Source: a plasmid
Length of the DNA: 7,421 nt
Sequence record: NZ_CP069410.1
Direction: 5' to 3' (one strand)
Within the stretch, counting starts at the first letter, position 1, and every line of letters begins with the position of its first letter. A program made the position numbers and the translations under genes. The notes under the pieces were generated by a model. The model did not search any database, had not been told where the DNA came from, and saw only the letters and a program-made list of their open reading frames with translations. This document shows, in pieces, positions 1,900-7,421 of the stretch.

Positions 1900-2110
1900 A
1901 GTCTTTGTACAAGGAGAAAAGAGTGGAGATTTTTTAAGTGGGTTTCTTAAAAAATACGACTCGTACCTTGTATAAAGACTAGCTATTTTTTAGGGGAGGT
2001 AGAAGATATTACAGTTTCTATTTTATAAATAAATTTAGACACCTATCCTTATATAGTTGAATAGCCTATAAAAGATTATTTTGAATAAAAAGTAGATAGG
2101 ATGATTTCTA

Positions 2111-2977
2111 TTGTTTTTTCATAAAAAGGAACTTCAATACCATGCAAAACCAGACCGTCCGGATCCTTTATTTGCAAAGCAACTGCAAGAAGTTTTAGGG
2201 GGGCAATTTGGTGAAATCTCTGTAGCATTACAATATCTATTTCAAGGATGGAATGTACGAGGTAACGGCAAATATAAAGATTTACTTATGGATACAGGAG
2301 CCGAAGAATTAGCTCATATCGAAATGTTAGCTACAATGATCGCCCGACTTCTTGATCGAGCACCTGTTGGAGATTTAGAAAAAGCAGCTCAGGATCCTGT
2401 CATTGGAGCGATTCTTGGAGGCATGAATCCACAACATGCTATTGTTTCCGGACTTGGGGCCATGCCAGCAGATAGTGTAGGAAACAGATGGCATGCAGGT
2501 TATATTGCAGCAAGTGGTAATCTCCTGGCAGATTTTCGCGCCAATTTAAATGCAGAGTCACAAGGTCGCCTTCAAGTTGTACGTCTCTATGAATCAACTA
2601 GTGATCGTGGAGTGAAAGATATGCTATCTTGGTTGATTGCTCGGGATACGATGCATCAAAATCAATGGATTGCAGCAATTAAGGAGTTAGAGGAAAAAGA
2701 AAATGTAGTTGTTCCAAGTACGTTTCCTCGACACTTAGAGAAACGGGAAGTATCCCATGTCCTCTTTAATTTTTCTGAAGGAGAAAAGAGTGCTACTGGA
2801 CGCTGGGCAAGTGGTCCAAGCATGGATGGAGAAGGTGTATTTCAATATGTTCAATGCCCAGAAGGATTTGGAGGCAAACCAAAATTAAAACCAGCTCCCC
2901 CATATATTCATGATACACCACCTCAAGATTTAAAGAGAAATGATAACTTTACTCCACCTCCTCCACATTTAGCTTAA
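2111..2977 (+). CDS. Manganese (non-haem, dinuclear Mn) catalase.
   Basis: The 288-aa product reads MFFHKKELQYHAKPDRPDPLFAKQLQEVLGGQFGEISVALQYLFQGWNVRGNGKYKDLLMDTGAEELAHIEMLATMIARLLD...RLQVVRLYESTSDRGVKDMLSWLIARDTMHQNQW. It is collinear with Lactobacillus plantarum Mn catalase and Bacillus YdbD-type Mn catalases as I recall them. The start codon is TTG at 2111, with AGGA at 2098-2101 and a 9-nt spacer. The stop is TAA at 2975-2977. Confidence 0.9.
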   Translation: MFFHKKELQYHAKPDRPDPLFAKQLQEVLGGQFGEISVALQYLFQGWNVRGNGKYKDLLMDTGAEELAHIEMLATMIARLLDRAPVGDLEKAAQDPVIGAILGGMNPQHAIVSGLGAMPADSVGNRWHAGYIAASGNLLADFRANLNAESQGRLQVVRLYESTSDRGVKDMLSWLIARDTMHQNQWIAAIKELEEKENVVVPSTFPRHLEKREVSHVLFNFSEGEKSATGRWASGPSMDGEGVFQYVQCPEGFGGKPKLKPAPPYIHDTPPQDLKRNDNFTPPPPHLA

Positions 2978-2991
2978 AAAGAATAACATTT

Positions 2992-3140
2992 AACAATTTG
3001 AGCAAACTACTCAAGATGTATAAAAGCATCAAAACTAACTTCTAATTATGTCACAGAAAAAACTACTGGTCCCCGATGAGCCGGTAGTTTTTTCTGTTTT
3101 TTAAGGTGTATATGATATATATTTTTAGTTAACATAAAAC
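2992..3140. repeat. Junction element copy 1 (conserved box, spacer, terminator hairpin, conserved box).
   Basis: aacaaTTTGAGCAAACTACTCAAGA lies at 2992-3016. A 40-bp spacer follows. Then CAGAAAAAA + hairpin aactactgg/ccggtagtt (3061-3089, one G.U wobble) + TTTTTTCTGTTTTTT. After 24 bp comes TAGTTAACATAAAAC at 3126-3140, then catttttcggaacac. Confidence 0.6.
3056..3102. terminator. Bidirectional rho-independent terminator between the catalase gene (+) and the HTH gene (-).
   Basis: A 9-bp stem is flanked by an A-run at 3056-3062 and a T-run at 3088-3102. Confidence 0.7.
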
Positions 3141-3157
3141 CATTTTTCGGAACACTT

Positions 3158-3682
3158 TTAGTCTAATAACCCTTTTTCCTTAAACACTTTTCTAAGAGCT
3201 TCATTTACTAATTCAGATTTATAACTCTTAGGAACTCGATCAATGATACTTAACACATCCTGGTCAAAATAAAACCCTCTATACACTTGTTTTGAGCGTT
3301 CTTTTGGATGCTGCAGTAACAAATCAATTGCATCTACTTTGCTATCATTTGTACTAGCTTTTTCAAAGCTGTCATTAGTACTTTCACTTTCATTCAGATA
3401 GCTAACACTAGCTGCTATTTCGCTATTGGCTAGCTGTTGTTTTGCTGGCATTTTACTGTTTTTAGAGATAAGAGTACTAAAATCAACATCTAAAGGTTCT
3501 GATTCTTCTCCAACATAGCGATAAATACTTTCCTTACTGTCCCATTCATAGCCTAATTTCTTAATCTTTGATTGAATGGTACGAGTACTTACATCATACC
3601 GATCAGCTAATTCTTTAATGGTGATTTCTTTCATCATAATTCCATTTAACATCTTTTTTACCAGCATCTTACTAGCCCCCAT
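3158..3682 (-). CDS. MerR-like HTH DNA-binding protein (hypothetical regulator). The exact start is ambiguous.
   Basis: The ORF is 174 aa. The N-terminus ...MKEITIKELADRYDVSTRTIQSKIKKLGYEW fits the MerR/excisionase-type HTH pattern ELA..(x)VS.RTI.....LGY. The C-terminus VYRGFYFDQDVLSIIDRVPKSYKSELVNEALRKVFKEKGLL is a predicted beta-alpha-alpha DNA-binding-like fold. There is no clear SD before the first ATG. The internal Met codons 6, 11, 16 and 17 are alternative starts, and GGGGG precedes Met6. A plausible promoter lies upstream on the minus strand with a perfect TATAAT. Confidence 0.6.
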   Translation of the reverse strand: MGASKMLVKKMLNGIMMKEITIKELADRYDVSTRTIQSKIKKLGYEWDSKESIYRYVGEESEPLDVDFSTLISKNSKMPAKQQLANSEIAASVSYLNESESTNDSFEKASTNDSKVDAIDLLLQHPKERSKQVYRGFYFDQDVLSIIDRVPKSYKSELVNEALRKVFKEKGLLD

Positions 3683-3771
3683 TTTCGTTTTAAAATTATA
3701 GTACTAGTATTCAAATGCAAAGTAATATTTCCTGCTATTACTTTGCTACAAAATGAATAATTAAGATCAAC

Positions 3772-3885
3772 ATGAGCAAACTACTCGAGAAGTCTTTTAG
3801 TACTCCAATTACAACCTAATATTTATCAGTAGAAAAAGCCATTTTCCCCAAAGATGGCTTTTTCGCCTTTTAGTTAACATAAAAC
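3772..3885. repeat. Junction element copy 2.
   Basis: ATGAGCAAACTACTCGAGAAG lies at 3772-3792. A ~40-bp spacer follows. Then GTAGAAAAA + hairpin aaaaagccat/atggcttttt (3833-3863) + TTTTTCGCCTTT, then TAGTTAACATAAAAC at 3871-3885. The hairpin sequence is unrelated to copies 1 and 3. Confidence 0.6.
3833..3870 (+). terminator. Rho-independent terminator.
   Basis: A 10-bp A/T+GC stem and an 11-nt loop are followed by a T-rich tract. Confidence 0.55.
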
Positions 3886-4037
3886 GTATTATCAGAAGTA
3901 AATATTTACAGCAGGATTAAGCCTGCTGCTATTTTATATTGACTCTAGAAAAATAATAATGTCCCATATATGGAACATATACATAACATTGATTAGGACA
4001 GTGATTTAACTGTCAATTCCAAAGAGGAGAGTGAAAC

Positions 4038-4577
4038 ATGTCTAAGACATGTATTATTGGAAATGGTTGTGCAGGGAAGACTACTCTAGGGAAAAAGTTA
4101 AGCCAAGATCTTTCACTTCCATTCTTTGAAATGGATGAAAAACTCAAATTTTTAAAAACAACTCCTTTTCCTACCAGGCAACAAATCAGACATTTTTCAA
4201 GAGAACTAAACAAATTATTAGATAAAGATAAATGGGTAATAGAAGGTTGGGGGTATAAAGAAACTTACGAAGAAAGATTTAAAAAAGCAGATATTATTAT
4301 CTTTCTAGATGTACCTTTCCAAGTTTGTTTAGAACGATGCCATAAAAGATTAGGTTCAACCAACTTAGAAATTCTAAAACGAGGCGTAACAAAGTTAAAC
4401 ATATTTGATAAACATGTACGTCCATTGCTATTAAAGCTAATCCAGAAATATAAAAATGAACCTAAAAAAATAATCCTAGAGATTGATCAGGATTTCAAAT
4501 ATGAGGATATATTGAGACAAATTAACATGAATACAGTGCCTATTAATAAGAAATCTGAATATCAAACAATAATTTGA
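4038..4577 (+). CDS. Small P-loop NTPase / nucleotide-kinase-fold protein, FlaR topology-modulation-protein-like (AAA_33-like).
   Basis: The ORF is 179 aa. The Walker A motif is IIGNGCAGKTTLGKKL. The block WVIEGWGYKETYEERFKKADIIIFLDVPFQVCLERCHKR is collinear with the WIIDGNY...ADTIVFLD.P...CL.R..KR signature of FlaR-like ~170-aa kinases. The RBS is AGAGGAGAG with a 7-nt spacer. The TGA stop lies inside junction box copy 3. Confidence 0.7.
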   Translation: MSKTCIIGNGCAGKTTLGKKLSQDLSLPFFEMDEKLKFLKTTPFPTRQQIRHFSRELNKLLDKDKWVIEGWGYKETYEERFKKADIIIFLDVPFQVCLERCHKRLGSTNLEILKRGVTKLNIFDKHVRPLLLKLIQKYKNEPKKIILEIDQDFKYEDILRQINMNTVPINKKSEYQTII

Positions 4578-4708
4578 GCAAACTACTCAAGAAACTGATA
4601 AGGTTTCAACCCTTTGGATAAATGTAGTAGAAAAACTCCCTTAACGCTCTAAGGGAGTTTTTCTGTTTTTGAACTGTATACTCTATACAAAGGTAGTTGA
4701 CATAATGT
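4571..4708. repeat. Junction element copy 3.
   Basis: aaTTTGAGCAAACTACTCAAGA lies at 4571-4592. A ~40-bp spacer follows. Then GTAGTAGAAAAA + hairpin aactccctta-acgctc-taagggagtt (4634-4659, perfect 10 bp, extendable to 13) + TTTTTCTGTTTTT. After 24 bp comes TAGTTGACATAATGT at 4694-4708, then ctctttccggaacac. The last tract matches tttttcggaacac after copy 1. Confidence 0.6.
4629..4670 (+). terminator. Rho-independent terminator of the kinase gene.
   Basis: A perfect 10-13-bp stem and 6-nt loop are followed by TTTTTCTGTTTTT. Confidence 0.7.
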
Positions 4709-4729
4709 CTCTTTCCGGAACACAACCCA

Positions 4730-4774
4730 AAAAAGAACCCTTGTCGCAGAACGGTTCCGCCGAGGGTTCTTTTT
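4730..4774. terminator. 12-bp perfect stem with a 21-nt loop (aaaaagaaccct ... agggttcttttt). Bidirectional terminator-like or structured RNA element.
   Basis: 4730-4741 is the exact reverse complement of 4763-4774. A-runs and T-runs are built into the arms. The stem is flanked by ctttccgga (4711-4719) and ttttccgga (4771-4779). The loop tgtcgcagaacggttccgccg is GC-rich. Confidence 0.4.
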
Positions 4775-5009
4775 CCGGAGTATGCAACTTTTTATACATC
4801 CTTGATATGACGGAGTTCCCCTTATAGGTGGTCGGAGAAATGATGAATAAAAAGTGCACCTTTTATTCATATGCAAGCCCTTATAAAAAAAGCATGTATC
4901 GGAAAAAGTATGATACAATAACCCCTGGTCTATTTTTTACAAATTTCAACGTAGCAAAAAGAGCAACCTTTCGTCCACTGCAGAGGTTGTTTCTTTATTT
5001 TCTTTAAGA

Positions 5010-5037
5010 CACTAATATCTTATTTGAGGGTGTTATA
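5010..5037 (+). promoter_or_regulatory. Candidate extended -10 promoter for the 5077 gene.
   Basis: gagggTGtTATAATag shows TGnTATAAT at ~5026-5037. A weak -35 (ACTAAT) lies 17 nt upstream. The 5044 ATG named in the ORF track would sit inside or just after the -10. The true start is therefore more likely 5077. Confidence 0.4.
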
Positions 5038-5076
5038 ATAGTTATGATTCTGAATAAATTGGAGGTTATAACTGTT

Positions 5077-5643
5077 ATGTACATGGAATTCTATGAAAAA
5101 GTAGATGGATTAGCAAGAGCTATTAGAGTCACAACTTCAACTGCAAAGAAATATTATTTACTTTTTGAAGAGCATGGTTATAACTTTAAACGTAATCAGC
5201 AAGGACAACTCTTGTTTTCACAAGATGATATAAATTTATTTAAAGAATTAATGATTTTAAAAAATGAAAAAGGTATGACAGTTCCAAAGGCTGTAAAGGA
5301 GATTGTAAGTGGAAAAGTTATAACTGACATAACAGATATAACAGACATAACTGTTACAACAGAAGATATAACGGTTATAACTAGCAAAGTTACAACTGTT
5401 ATGACTGAGATAGAAGAGTTAAAAAAGTTAGTAAAAGATCAAAATGAAATTATAGAGAAACAACAAGAAAATTTTAAAAAGCAATTTTTAAAACAAGAAG
5501 CCTACATAAAAGACAATCTAGAACAAAGAGATAAAACGTTAGTTACAACATTAAGAGAAATGCAAGATTCACAGAAAGAAATAGCTGCTACTTTATCCAA
5601 AGAAAAAGATAAGAAAAAATGGTGGCAAATATGGCGAAGTTAA
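5077..5643 (+). CDS. MerR-like HTH + coiled-coil protein with an internal (I/V)TD tandem repeat. A paralogue-like partner of the 3158-3682 product.
   Basis: In this frame GGAGG lies at 5061-5065 and the ATG at 5077 gives MYMEFYEKVDGLARAIRVTTSTAKKYYLLFEEHGYNF. The pattern LA..I.VTTSTAKKY....GY matches the 3158-3682 protein (LADRYDVSTRTIQSKIKKLGYEW). A tandem repeat ITDITDITDITVTTEDITVITSKVTTV follows. The tail ELKKLVKDQNEIIEKQQENFKKQFLKQEAYIKDNLEQRDKTL is a coiled coil. The ORF track extends the N-terminus to 5044, which overlaps the promoter. Confidence 0.6.
   Translation: MYMEFYEKVDGLARAIRVTTSTAKKYYLLFEEHGYNFKRNQQGQLLFSQDDINLFKELMILKNEKGMTVPKAVKEIVSGKVITDITDITDITVTTEDITVITSKVTTVMTEIEELKKLVKDQNEIIEKQQENFKKQFLKQEAYIKDNLEQRDKTLVTTLREMQDSQKEIAATLSKEKDKKKWWQIWRS
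5317..5410 (+). repeat. About ten degenerate 9-bp tandem repeats ATAAC(A/T)G(A/T)(C/T) inside the CDS, carrying GTTATAAC palindromes.
   Basis: The tract reads gttataactgac ataacagat ataacagac ataactgtt acaacagaa gatataacg gttataact agcaaagtt acaactgtt. The perfect 8-bp palindrome GTTATAAC occurs at 5317-5324 and 5374-5381 here. It also occurs at 5065-5072 (between the SD and the start codon) and at 5700-5707 (just past the gene). Confidence 0.6.
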
Positions 5644-5672
5644 ACCACTCAATCAATTTGAGTGGTTTTTTG
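5644..5672 (+). terminator. Rho-independent terminator immediately after the stop codon.
   Basis: The stem accactcaa-tcaat-ttgagtggt (9 bp) is followed by TTTTTT. Confidence 0.65.
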
Positions 5673-5712
5673 TATATTGCAAAAATGCAACGCATAACAG
5701 TTATAACTACTC

Positions 5713-5758
5713 GGCCGTCTTAAGACGGCTTTTTTAGCCTTCAGGCTATATTTTTTTC
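5713..5758 (+). terminator. Tandem back-up terminators.
   Basis: gccgtcttaagacggc is a perfect 16-nt palindrome followed by TTTTTT. agcct-tca-ggct followed by atattttttt comes next. Confidence 0.55.
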
Positions 5759-5876
5759 AACGAAAAAAATACGAAAAGACTCTTGCAATTCTATTAACGA
5801 ATTGCTATATAAATAGAGAGTGAGAGTAAAATAACCATTAAGGTAGTAATAAACCCTTTTATACCAAGGCTTTATA

Positions 5877-5940
5877 CCGGATTTCGTAGTTACCGAATTA
5901 GATAACTATAGTTACCGAATTAGATAACTACGAAATCATA
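5877..5940. repeat. Two perfect tandem 22-bp direct repeats (tagttaccgaattagataacta x2) bracketed by a 10-bp inverted repeat. Iteron-like candidate origin or centromere-like site.
   Basis: Unit 1 is 5887-5908 and unit 2 is 5909-5930, and they are identical. Each unit is internally pseudo-palindromic (tagtta...taacta). The flanks gatttcgtag (5880-5889) and ctacgaaatc (5928-5937) are inverted repeats that overlap the unit ends. The element sits 15-70 bp downstream of the repL stop. Confidence 0.6.
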
Positions 5941-5968
5941 AAAAAGTAACCCTTAGAAAAGGGTTACT
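5939..5968 (-). terminator. Terminator of repL. It overlaps the last 5 codons.
   Basis: The stem agtaaccctt-agaa-aagggttact (10 bp, 5945-5968) precedes a T-run on the minus strand, which is the A-run at 5939-5944 on the plus strand. Confidence 0.55.
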
Positions 5969-6576
5969 GGAAAATTTTTAAATAAAGGCTTAGCATTAGC
6001 AAAAAGTGCTTTTAAAGTTGTTTCTATATTGTCTCGTTCTCCACTATAAATAATATTCGGATTAATAAACAAGGCATATGTACGGGCATTATTGCCTTCT
6101 GTTTTCTGACCTTGAGCTTTAACAATTACGCCTTTATCAACTAGCTGATTTACAATTCTACTAACCTTAGGCGCACTAGTTTTTAATCTTTCAGCAATAG
6201 CCTTCTGAGTCAATGGAACTGCACTTCTAGAGTGAATATTATCTACAATGCAGTTACTTTTAAATTGCATATATCTTTGAATACGAAGTAAGAAGAGCAT
6301 CTGTTCATCAGTAAAATAATCATTGTCTAAAGCATAATCCCAATTATCCTGAATAAATTGAGCAAATTTCACTTTTGATTTTGGAGAACGTTTAGTTCCA
6401 ACGTAAATCTCCTTTCCTCCAGTCGCTTTACTTAATACTTCTATAGCCTTGTTAACATCATCCTGATCAACACCATGATAGTCTTCTTTTAATTTTTCTT
6501 TTTCATTTTCTAAATCTCTTAACCTAGCATTTTGTTCGGCATCATCAAAATTAATTTTGAATTTTCTTTTTTTCAA
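5953..6576 (-). CDS. repL: RepL-family (firmicute plasmid replication protein, pSN2-type) replication protein.
   Basis: The ORF is 207 aa. The core FLLRIQRYMQFKSNCIVDNIHSRSAVPLTQKAIAERLKTSAPKVSRIVNQLVDKGVIVKAQG...ALFINPNIIYSGERD is collinear with pSN2 RepL (...KIVNYILDNVHLSNNTMIATTREIAKATGTSLQTVITTLKILEEGNIIKRKTG...LMLNPELLMRGDD) as I recall it. This includes a winged-HTH block and the NP...G tail. The start codon is TTG. The SD is GGAGAGG with a 9-nt spacer. Confidence 0.6.
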   Translation of the reverse strand: MKKRKFKINFDDAEQNARLRDLENEKEKLKEDYHGVDQDDVNKAIEVLSKATGGKEIYVGTKRSPKSKVKFAQFIQDNWDYALDNDYFTDEQMLFLLRIQRYMQFKSNCIVDNIHSRSAVPLTQKAIAERLKTSAPKVSRIVNQLVDKGVIVKAQGQKTEGNNARTYALFINPNIIYSGERDNIETTLKALFANAKPLFKNFPVTLF

Positions 6577-6580
6577 TTGT

Positions 6581-6608
6581 TAATTCCTCTCCTCTAGCAG
6601 GAATTAAC
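6581..6608 (-). promoter_or_regulatory. 9-bp inverted repeat ttaattcct / aggaattaa enclosing the repL Shine-Dalgarno sequence.
   Basis: On the mRNA, UUAAUUCCU-GCUAGAGGAG-AGGAAUUAA ends 3 nt before the TTG start. Most of the SD lies in the loop and 3' arm of this stem. It could be a translational control element or an operator. Confidence 0.4.
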
Positions 6609-6630
6609 CGTCCTGTGTTAAAATAAAATT

Positions 6631-6734
6631 AATTAAATAGGTTGCACAACAACAAGAGGTTAATCCCTCGAAATGTTTTGTTAAAAGTCCTCTGGCCCGC
6701 TAAAACTAGAGGACTTTCTTATTTTTAATTTTAA
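6631..6734 (+). ncRNA. Candidate countertranscript (antisense RNA) to the repL leader.
   Basis: On the plus strand TGtTAAAAT (6616-6624) is an extended -10. About 60 nt downstream there is a strong plus-strand intrinsic terminator. Its stem aaagtcctct/agaggacttt (6684-6693 / 6708-6717) has a 14-nt loop and is followed by cttatttttaatttt. No plus-strand ORF lies within ~1 kb upstream. The element sits between a CopG-like gene and rep, antisense to the rep leader, as RNAII does in pMV158-type plasmids. The -35 is weak. Confidence 0.3.
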
Positions 6735-6759
6735 ATCATATAGATCTTTATTTCATTGA

Positions 6760-6966
6760 TTATTTATTCTTTACACTTCTTGATTCTACAGGTATTTCTT
6801 TCTCATATAACCTTCTTAAGGCCAAACGTATAACATCATTTTGAGTAATAGGTTTAAAACTAAAATCATTAAAATCATTAAATGAGTTAATTAACTCCTG
6901 AACCATTACTAATTCGTCTTCGTCAAGCCTTATGGAAGTAGTTTTTAACGTCTTTTTTTCTGTCAT
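6760..6966 (-). CDS. Ribbon-helix-helix (CopG/Arc/MetJ-like) DNA-binding protein. Probable copy-control repressor or transcriptional repressor upstream of repL.
   Basis: The true start is ATG at 6966 (MTEKKTLKTTSIRLDEDELVMVQELINSFNDF...ITQNDVIRLALRRLYEKE, 68 aa). GGAGG precedes it with a 7-nt spacer. The beta-strand + two helices pattern (TTSIRLDEDEL / VIRLALRRL) is the RHH fold. The ORF track's 88-aa version adds 20 residues translated across the promoter and RBS. Confidence 0.7.
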   Translation of the reverse strand: MTEKKTLKTTSIRLDEDELVMVQELINSFNDFNDFSFKPITQNDVIRLALRRLYEKEIPVESRSVKNK

Positions 6967-6997
6967 GTCAATACCTCCAACTTCTTCTATATACAAC

Positions 6998-7026
6998 ATT
7001 ATACAATTCAATTTAATCAATCGCAA
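6998..7026 (-). promoter_or_regulatory. Promoter of the RHH-repL unit.
   Basis: On the minus strand TTGCGA is followed by a 17-nt spacer and tgTATAAT (-10 = plus 6998-7003). The spacer contains five short att(g) direct repeats. A 7-bp inverted repeat taatcta/tagatta lies upstream at ~7035-7050 and could be an operator. Confidence 0.5.
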
Positions 7027-7060
7027 TACAATGTAATCTATTAGATTATAAAAGAAGATG

Positions 7061-7421
7061 TTATCCTAACTCTATACCAAACAACCCAAAGAACCACTTG
7101 AACAAGAAGAACATAGGCACCATAAAGACGGCCGCCCCAGCTCCATACTTCACCCAATCTAACCAGCCATTAAACACCACGCCCAACTTAGCGTTCGATA
7201 TCATAGTCTTGCTGTTTTTCTCGATTTCGCTGAGTTCTGATTTCGCCTTCTCGCTCAACATGTCGAACTTGCTCCCCAGGTTGTTGTTGATCTTCTCGAG
7301 TTCGTCCTTGATCATTTGATTGTTTGTTTGGAACTCGTTGTTCAGAAACTCCTGATTCTGTTTCATCTCGCTGTGCAATACCTTGATGGCCGTCTTCATC
7401 TCGGCCAAAGTTTCGTTCGTA
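7061..7421 (-). CDS. Coiled-coil protein with a C-terminal transmembrane anchor, XhlA-like. Probably 5'-truncated by the window edge.
   Basis: The product reads ...AEMKTAIKVLHSEMKQNQEFLNNEFQTNNQMIKDELEKINNNLGSKFDMLSEKAKSELSEIEKNSKTMISNAKLGVVFNGWLDWVKYGAGAAVFMVPMFFLFKWFFGLFGIELG. The tail NGWLDWVKYGAGAAV resembles the NRWIEVIRWVAGLAVGA junction of PBSX XhlA. The frame is open to 7421 and the ORF track's start (TTG at 7408) has no RBS. GC content matches the mob module rather than the cargo. Confidence 0.45.
   Translation of the reverse strand, partial: TNETLAEMKTAIKVLHSEMKQNQEFLNNEFQTNNQMIKDELEKINNNLGSKFDMLSEKAKSELSEIEKNSKTMISNAKLGVVFNGWLDWVKYGAGAAVFMVPMFFLFKWFFGLFGIELG

Follow-up and report, generated by a model that had tools for sequence, protein, structure and literature searches.

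What does a tandem pair of small palindromes do when it lies directly behind a plasmid replication gene? Origins have been defined far better for plasmids of the pT181, pC194 and pMV158 families than for those with RepL-like initiators (pSN2-, pGI2- and pTX14-3-type), and to our knowledge RepL-like initiators have no known catalytic motif. The question is raised here by a 7,421-nucleotide stretch of plasmid DNA (sequence record NZ_CP069410.1; the whole stretch is hereafter the window), in which a 58-bp repeat element at 5880-5937 occupies the gap between two convergent genes (5044-5643, plus strand, and 5953-6576, minus strand), the second of which, rep, encodes a predicted replication initiator. 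The element is real and functionally constrained, and comparison with related plasmids suggests that it is probably the plasmid-specific locus of Rep recognition (the 'bind' locus) within the origin of a replicon of the pGI2 type whose initiator is RepL-like.

Read from the letters of the window, the element comprises a flank, two 22-bp units and a second flank, and a terminator hairpin sits between these dyads and rep:

5880-5886, left flank GATTTCG: T-rich outer arm of the overall palindrome, pairing with 5931-5937.
5887-5908, dyad unit 1, TAGTTACCGAATTAGATAACTA: half-sites 1 and 2, 11 bp each, facing each other.
5909-5930, dyad unit 2, TAGTTACCGAATTAGATAACTA: identical to unit 1, with half-sites 3 and 4.
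5931-5937, right flank CGAAATC: A-rich outer arm of the overall palindrome.
5945-5968, minus strand, intrinsic terminator of rep (terminator scan): AGTAACCCTT-TTCT-AAGGGTTACT followed by TTTTTTAT, overlapping the stop codon.
5953-6576, minus strand, rep: 207 amino acids, winged-helix (MarR-like/RepL-like) predicted replication initiator.

An earlier, sequence-only reading of this DNA had described an exact 2 x 22-bp tandem repeat of pseudo-palindromic units bracketed by a 10-bp inverted repeat, and all three features were confirmed. Tandem Repeats Finder returned the TAGTTACCGAATTAGATAACTA pair with a period of 22, 2.0 copies, 100% matches and a score of 88; the halves of the unit, written from the outside to the centre, are TAGTTACCGAA and TAGTTATCTAA and agree at 9 of 11 positions; and the bracketing 10-mers GATTTCGTAG (5880-5889) and CTACGAAATC (5928-5937) are exact reverse complements, though each overlaps a unit by 3 nt. 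A separate repeat search recovered the same pair, and also the whole element as one inverted repeat with 29-nt arms (5880-5908 and 5909-5937) that are 86% complementary. At up to three mismatches, TAGTTACCGAATTAGATAACTA occurred at just two sites in the window against 0.00 expected (200 shuffles), so the pair is not a product of chance, and no further copy was found in the window at this threshold, the surroundings of the rep promoter included. The repeats start 16 nt beyond the stop codon (5953-5955) of rep, a minus-strand open reading frame (ORF), and their earlier placement just 3' of repL thus holds for the position, whereas the gene name is a loose one: the rep product scores 17.9 bits against Pfam RepL (PF05732), under the cut-off of 20.3.

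The same product matches the Pfam families MarR_2, HTH_Crp_2 and HTH_24 above their cut-offs. Among its close relatives, seven of eight match Pfam RepL at E <= 0.01 (best 2.7e-7), and some close homologues carry a RepL annotation; profile comparisons thus place the protein on a distant branch of RepL rather than among its clean members. The best fold and profile matches are MarR, MepR and SlyA, and a sequence search of solved structures returned generic winged-helix matches alone (E >= 7e-4). In the structure model, the winged-helix core has a predicted local distance difference test score (pLDDT) of 75-90 over approximately residues 70-150. The recognition-helix region falls at approximately residues 131-146 (KTSAPKVSRIVNQLVD), and Tyr81 is invariant in alignment A2 and at least 90% conserved in alignment A3. 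Members of the MarR-like winged-helix family bind dyads as dimers. A recent preprint groups RepL with single winged-helix initiators related to the RepA_N proteins.

Homologues of Rep were found by tblastn on at least 298 PLSDB plasmids (235 Bacillus, 56 Priestia). On plasmids of 4.5-5.5 kb, rep is one of two to four genes, and on a 2.7-kb contig (L025) it is the sole sizeable ORF. The nearest named relative is P0034 (74% identity over 97% of the length of Rep), recorded in the B. cereus group as an 'Uncharacterized 23.6 kDa protein'. Its gene lies on Bt407 BTB_5p and also on pIS56-9, a plasmid of 9671 bp with the Tn4430 resolvase; we take the P0034-encoding plasmid to be pGI2. A paper on pGI1 names Andrup 2003, whose title refers to six rolling-circle plasmids, as a source of the pGI2 sequence. 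The annotated 'Rep protein' of pBMB0228, a plasmid described in the literature as a cointegrate of two rolling-circle replicons, is 48% identical to the window Rep. A review relates pBCT8 to pTX14-3, and the annotated 'replication protein' of pBCT8 shares 30% identity with the window Rep (E = 9e-33). The earlier label 'pSN2-family RepL' was imprecise, the protein being a RepL-like relative of the pGI2 23.6-kDa protein and the 22-bp-spaced repeats of a true RepL plasmid, pNE131, lying upstream of repL.

A blastn search with the non-coding segment 5780-6000 returned 78 plasmids, nine of which were aligned (alignment A1), and further loci were collected by Rep homology in two sets and compared in the 3' flanks of rep. 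A Rep homologue abuts the element in all nine plasmids taken from the non-coding search (9/9). Megablast of 4600-7100 against PLSDB, a less sensitive search, gave matches that end at window position 5827, short of the repeats. Where rep was complete and its 3' flank long enough (36 loci, Rep identity 30-100%), a module of constant orientation was identified on the 3' side of rep in 35. It runs from a left inverted repeat, of which there are two types, through a (T)AGAGAGTGAGA box, a TAYCAAGG box, a T-rich flank, two dyads and an A-rich flank to the rep terminator, at whose position all relatives have a hairpin plus an A/T run. In the window both boxes, the two dyads and the terminator are present within 5813-5968, and the parts to the left of the element are the following:

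5785-5805, plus strand, left inverted repeat GCAATTC-N7-GAATTGC: 'class A' left context, the left edge of the module.
5813-5826, plus strand, first box ATAGAGAGTGAGAG: best-conserved sequence of the module, single copy in the window.
5860-5873, plus strand, second box TATACCAAGGCTTT (TAYCAAGG): the minus strand reads CCTTGGTATA.

Other relatives ('class B') have GTTCC-TTGC-GGAAC in place of the class A left repeat, and homology between the two classes begins just ~8 nt left of the AGAGTGAGA box. Within the first box, AGAGTGAG is invariant in A1, and AGAG[TC][GA]AGA or a near variant is found in 35 loci. The geometry of the module is similarly constant, with the TAYCAAGG box at +44 to +47 nt from the first box in nearly all loci and with 90-94 nt separating the start of the AGAGTGAGA box from the middle of the double dyad in 35/35 loci (92 nt in the window). 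The centre-to-centre spacing of the dyads was 22.0 bp in 30/35 loci when scored by script and 21 bp in L016, and three loci mis-centred by the script (L010, L014 and L037) have a spacing of 22 bp when read by eye. The flanks covary across loci, for example as TTTTCAT/ATGAAAA, TTTTAAT/ATTAAAA and TTTTTGA/TCAAAAA. The module reaches pBCT8 despite a Rep identity of 30%, and on plasmids of 2.7-4.6 kb it is the main conserved non-coding DNA adjoining rep.

Within this constant frame, the element is built of four 11-bp half-sites in alternating orientation, forming two dyads that lie two helical turns apart, and it is the half-sites that vary between plasmids. At half-site positions 3-8, identity is 94.5% among the half-sites of one origin and 57% when different origins are compared. 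The window core at these positions is GTTACC/GTTATC; this and the cores GTTGTC, TATATC, GTTCTT, GTGTCAC, CCGTAT, GTAATG, GTTGGT, GTCCC, TGTATTG and GGTGTGA were seen across plasmids, and half-sites differ even between plasmids from the same host genus. The A/T-rich centres of the dyads are often asymmetric, and their relative orientation in the two units is direct in 15 cases (window included), inverted in 9 and symmetric in 3. By this comparison, the units can be laid out in either of two interchangeable ways, the exact tandem direct repeat being one of them, and the conserved feature is a pair of adjacent dyads within an overall palindrome. The earlier reading had proposed a look for the same repeats beside repL in related plasmids, and what these share is the two-dyad module (35/36 loci) and not the direct-repeat layout. 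Nor does the earlier comparison with iterons fit, as there are two copies only, the units are dyads whose centre orientation is not conserved, and the initiator is not of the Rep_3 type (no Rep_3 match in Pfam).

The variation of the half-sites follows that of the recognition helix and not that of the rest of Rep. Half-site distance correlated with distance in the recognition-helix region (Mantel r = 0.55), also when the rest of Rep was controlled for (partial Mantel r = 0.48, p = 2e-4), while its correlation with the rest of Rep, the helix being controlled, was r = 0.09 (p = 0.10); these tests ignore shared ancestry, and several of the loci are near-duplicates. The clade with ~73% identity to the window Rep illustrates the pattern, SAPKVSR occurring with GTTACC/GTTATC, DKSKISR with GTTGTC and YKSQVSK with GTTATAA. 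The comparative picture is a tidy one, with a fixed geometry, four equivalent half-sites and a code that appears to link recognition helix to half-site.

Single dyads were also identified outside the origin pairs, in L029 (1519-1544), L034 (1317-1341), L007 (2672-2699) and L022 (1594-1612 and 1673-1692), and in some of them the half-site type is not that of the origin pair nearby. The rep terminator hairpin of L034 is formed by a GTTATC-type dyad, while its origin pair is of the GTGTCAC type, and in L022 the two extra copies adjoin the origin pair. Two relics, L009 and L015, have a truncated rep and retain a single dyad.

The earlier reading had noted that the start of the repeat motif also begins a junction box, TAGTTAACATAA. 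The window has two copies of TAGTTANC outside the four half-sites, where 1.1 would be expected, and the junction box is unchanged in plasmids with other half-sites (TATATC in L006, GTTGTA in L016); its resemblance to the half-sites is coincidental.

Among the three functions proposed for the repeats in the sequence-only reading (a Rep-binding origin, a partition site or an operator), the first is favoured by the linkage to rep, the fixed geometry and the co-variation with the recognition helix. The element lies in cis beside rep and appears specific to the cognate Rep, as expected of a bind locus, and both the Rep homology and the 3' module would place the window plasmid among pGI2-type replicons. 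A rolling-circle origin in general combines a conserved nick region with a Rep-specific bind site. The dyads and the boxes at a fixed distance, read as bind locus and common initiation region, match this scheme. The rolling-circle label itself comes from the literature on relatives (pGI2 and pBMB0228). The AGAGTGAGA box is a candidate for the region of initiation, by nicking or melting. The comparison shows the anatomy of the element, its conservation and fixed geometry, the equivalence of the four half-sites and their co-variation with the helix-turn-helix of Rep; from there we infer physical binding by Rep, the stoichiometry of Rep dimers, the site and chemistry of nicking or melting, and a rolling-circle mode.

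The proposed mechanism is as follows. Presumably two dimers of the winged-helix, RepL-like initiator would bind the four half-sites on the same face of the DNA, each 22-bp dyad unit serving as the site of one dimer. Bound 92 bp (90-94 in relatives) from the AGAGTGAGA and TAYCAAGG boxes, Rep would be placed to open or nick the origin there, possibly assisted by cruciform extrusion of the palindrome, and host enzymes would then make the leading strand. The half-site core (positions 3-8) would set the pairing of Rep with its origin, and thereby replicon specificity and incompatibility. General signals of an origin did not add to this picture: GC and AT skew across the window follow gene orientation and mosaic G+C (0.29-0.50) without an origin signal, and the window holds three DnaA-box-like 9-mers against 2.2 expected, none of them near the module.

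Several observations weigh against this interpretation, in addition to the shared ancestry that the Mantel tests ignore. The rep product has no HUH or Rep_trans match in Pfam, and thus no recognised nuclease motif; the overall pLDDT of its model is low (64.5); and Foldseek matches of the model to MarR proteins are weak (best E = 4e-3, TM-scores of ~0.3-0.5). In three lineages (L021, L024 and L025) the CAAGG box is flipped (CTTGRTA, at +39/40) while the other parts of the module are unflipped, which is awkward for a strand-specific nick site. In L019 (3091-3125), rep is intact and the AGAGTGAGA box is kept, yet the CAAGG box and both dyads are cleanly deleted; one ORF on the same 16-kb contig has weak matches to PriCT_1 (15.8 bits, below cut-off) and HTH_11, so that L019 may replicate from a second replicon. 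Finally, the palindrome folds strongly as single-stranded DNA on either strand, which leaves room for a purely structural role.

On the rep strand, the usual second box reads CCTTG(A/G)TAT, which we take to resemble the nick core CTTGATA of pC194 and phiX174. A nick core of that kind would be attractive, but the box is flipped in three lineages and Rep has no HUH motif, and this reading was set aside.

It is conceivable, if doubtful, that RepL-like initiators start replication in a manner unlike classical rolling-circle nicking, since Rep has no recognised nuclease motif and RepL is grouped with the RepA_N-related winged-helix initiators. Two dimers might then switch the ~58-bp palindrome between duplex, cruciform and cloverleaf, and Rep might serve either as a loader of the DnaD kind or to bring in a host enzyme, in both cases at the AGAGTGAGA and CAAGG boxes, ~92 bp away. 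If true, this family, and perhaps pSN2/RepL plasmids generally, would constitute a separate class of initiation whose recognition code could be read from natural pairs of helix and half-site.

The bind-locus reading has to be weighed first against a role as structural DNA, in which a cruciform, hairpin or cloverleaf would serve as nick site, as part of a lagging-strand (single-strand) origin or as the end point of a replication round while Rep leaves the half-sites unread. The palindrome, with its 29-nt arms, folds at -13.2 and -14.0 kcal/mol on the two strands (z = -5.6 and -6.2), nine relatives have a near-perfect palindrome of at least 50 bp over the whole element, and the pT181 origin is known from the literature to use a Rep-induced cruciform. 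Compensatory changes across the loci keep the base pairs of both possible folds, a long single hairpin (89.0% paired, covariation score 0.585) and an outer stem with two small hairpins (86.9% paired, score 0.559). Both lie well above shuffled and slid controls, each being beaten by 0/500 shuffles, and they are mutually exclusive. Two exclusive folds with equal support, neither of which needs four equal half-sites, are better explained by one homodimeric reader bound twice, particularly as the four half-sites do match and their core positions 3-6 are almost always symmetric. Among 87 paired half-site mismatches, 53 are transversions, unpaired on both strands, and the wobble-compatible remainder (possible on the minus strand alone in 24 cases and on the plus strand alone in 10) favours neither strand. 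In addition, the half-sites track the recognition helix of Rep, which pairing alone would not predict; the centres, or 'loops', are held A/T-rich at a constant spacing of 22 bp; and a sequence like a single-strand origin, the Bacillus-plasmid motif of Rfam, sits elsewhere (1648-1703). On balance, a purely structural role is unlikely.

Somewhat less likely still is a regulatory or copy-control function, with the origin elsewhere and the dyads, bound by Rep or by some other plasmid protein, titrating the initiator, handcuffing plasmids or blocking transcription that converges on the 3' end of rep from the side of the DUF3967 gene. Such a function would suit the position of the dyads between convergent genes, the extra single dyads of L022, L007, L029 and L034, and the retention of rep without dyads in L019. 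Against it, both convergent genes have their own terminators and the convergent DUF3967 gene is present in just 10/39 carriers, while the distance of 90-94 nt to two non-coding boxes points to one composite cis element, the module is the chief conserved non-coding DNA near rep on plasmids of 2.7-4.6 kb, and the L019 contig may replicate from a second replicon. A more specific form of regulation, in which the repeats are an operator for a ribbon-helix-helix (RHH)-like or a DUF3967/MerR-like protein, was rejected: no second copy lies near the rep promoter, and among 39 related loci with Rep in 39/39, an RHH-like ORF occurs in 0/39 and a DUF3967 protein in the 10 already mentioned.

An RNA element, that is, a small RNA or primer transcript running from near the AGAGTGAGA box through the dyads and antisense to the 3' end of rep, is very improbable. 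A promoter-like TTGCAA-17 nt-TATATA lies directly left of the AGAGTGAGA box in the window, and an invariant box would suit an initial transcribed sequence. This candidate promoter fails as a general explanation, however, as the promoter scan does not call it and the TTGC-TATA spacing shrinks to 13-15 nt in class B; moreover, with the threshold relaxed to E <= 1 Rfam still gave no match at 5800-5950, the terminator scan picks out 5945-5968 (minus strand) instead of the TAGTTACCGAATTAGATAACTA repeats, the 5945-5968 hairpin is not directly followed by a T-run on the plus strand, and the wobble pattern prefers no strand.

Least credible of all is a site for partition (a centromere) or for the resolution of multimers (Xer/res). 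Some centromeres and recombinase sites do look like this, as repeated dyads in non-coding DNA, but the partition site of the earlier reading has no partition genes beside it, the window encoding no ParA, ParM or TubZ, no centromere-binding partner and no recombinase (Pfam, nine ORFs including all large ones), so that the element is not a centromere, and in addition some carriers are very small (2.7-4.6 kb), one contig name gives ~446x coverage, and a host Xer site would be conserved whereas the half-sites differ within one host genus.

The remainder of the window belongs to a plasmid whose DNA matches are to Priestia plasmids. Pfam scans of the same nine ORFs identified a MobA-type relaxase, MobC, a Mn catalase, a kinase-like protein, an HTH_11 protein, a DUF3967/MerR-like protein and the winged-helix Rep, with no second replication protein and no partition protein among them. 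Three of these lie between the mobilisation genes and the origin region:

2111-2977, Mn catalase.
3158-3682, minus strand, HTH_11 protein.
4038-4577, kinase-like protein.

These three accessory cassettes end in a common tail of ~150 bp, made of TTGAGCAAACTACTCRAGA, a terminator and TTTTAGTTRACATAA (2976-3152, 3750-3897 and 4552-4705). The cassette-tail box recurs in L006, L009, L014, L015 and L016, and its position ~12 nt left of the AGAGTGAGA origin box in L009 and L015 suggests a recombination junction. G+C is 0.44-0.50 over the relaxase and MobC (1-1900) and 0.29-0.35 over most of 2000-7421, rising to 0.41 in the catalase segment (~2100-3000), a contrast indicative of a mosaic plasmid. At position 1 the relaxase ORF is cut off by the edge of the window, and since it is out of frame with the ORF at 7061-7408, the window may not be an exact circle.

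The Rfam Bacillus-plasmid RNA motif RF01691 was found at 1648-1703 on the minus strand (54.9 bits, E = 1.7e-10), the one real hit when the entire window was compared with Rfam at E <= 1. At ~1860-1985, ~200 nt from this motif, GTCGGCTTGGCGAG...GGAGATTTTTT...AAAATACGACTCGTACCTTG resembles the sequence left of the class B origin module. The RF01691 region may be a single-strand origin on the rep strand, parted from the rest of the origin by rearrangement. A further non-coding segment, 4614-4874, has long hairpin potential and 75-89% identity in ~77 Priestia plasmids of 3.8-170 kb, where the matches carry no annotated feature.

Smaller repeats were identified to the left of the module. Repeats of 9 and 18 bp (TATAACAGA) at 5316-5363, inside the DUF3967/MerR-like ORF, encode ITDITDITD, and a 16-bp motif, ATAAC(G/A)GTTATAACTA, occurs inside the same gene (5368-5383) and again 50 nt after it (5694-5709). 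Upstream of rep, a small ORF (6760-7026, minus strand) has a weak RHH match (E = 0.049) and stands behind a good promoter-like site, TTGCGA-17-TATAAT (7026-6998). The layout resembles a cop-rep operon, and a homologue of the RHH-like ORF was found in none of the 39 loci, as given above.

For this plasmid the result is one of routine annotation, which marks the probable location of the origin, and the element is of an ordinary kind. Its wider use lies in the comparison, which yields a testable origin model for at least 298 Bacillus and Priestia plasmids in PLSDB. Naturally occurring combinations of recognition helix and half-site make a ready table for predicting incompatibility groups, and could help in designing small vectors that are orthogonal to one another in Priestia megaterium and the B. 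cereus group.

Compared with known systems, the element shares single traits with several and its whole plan with one group. Theta iterons resemble it in their 22-bp period and in being Rep-specific repeats beside rep, as in pSK639, a Rep_3-type theta plasmid with five 22-bp iterons, but the window has two dyad units of unconserved centre orientation, no enrichment of DnaA boxes and an initiator that is not Rep_3. MarR operators are likewise dyads of ~20 bp read by a winged-helix homodimer; the window differs in having two dyads, with a phasing of 22 bp, in a context that is a putative origin instead of a promoter, and the protein matches are weak.

The RepL/pSN2 plasmids share a small helix-turn-helix Rep, to which the window Rep adds ~100 amino acids at the N-terminus. 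In pNE131 (L040, 1847-1912), TTTGTTCTAATTT occurs twice at 22-bp spacing and is followed by a GTTCT-N9-AGAAC dyad, with the same phasing as in the window. These repeats lie upstream of repL (start 1960), whereas those of the window lie downstream of rep, and the origin layout is therefore not common to the pSN2 family; the AGAGTGAGA/CAAGG module was not seen in pNE131.

In pMV158, three 11-bp direct repeats are bound by a hexamer of the HUH initiator RepB, where the window has four 11-bp half-sites in alternating orientation. In both, the repeats that bind Rep, or are predicted to, lie tens of base pairs from a conserved initiation region, as the literature describes for pMV158.

The double-strand origins of the pT181 family are closer in logic, pairing a region conserved across the family with a plasmid-specific inverted repeat for the cognate Rep. 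In pT181 these are the conserved nick palindrome IR-II and the variable specificity repeat IR-III. The differences lie in the protein and in the layout: the pT181 initiator is a Rep_trans tyrosine nuclease and the window Rep a small winged-helix protein without a recognised nuclease motif, and pT181 has a single adjacent repeat in an origin inside rep, while the window has two dyads ~92 bp from the box in a putative origin 3' of rep.

The closest likeness is to pGI2 (copies pIS56-9 and Bt407 BTB_5p), pBMB0228 and pBCT8. The window differs from the pGI2 group in its class A left context, in place of GTTCC-TTGC-GGAAC, in its accessory cassettes and MOB module, and in its host, which is probably Priestia. 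The half-site core differs in each (GTTACC/GTTATC in the window, GTTGTC in pGI2, GTCCC in pBMB0228 and GGTGTGA in pBCT8), yet all have a homologous Rep (74%, 48% and 30% identity to that of the window, respectively) and the same order of parts 3' of it: the AGAGTGAGA box, the CAAGG box, two dyads and a terminator.

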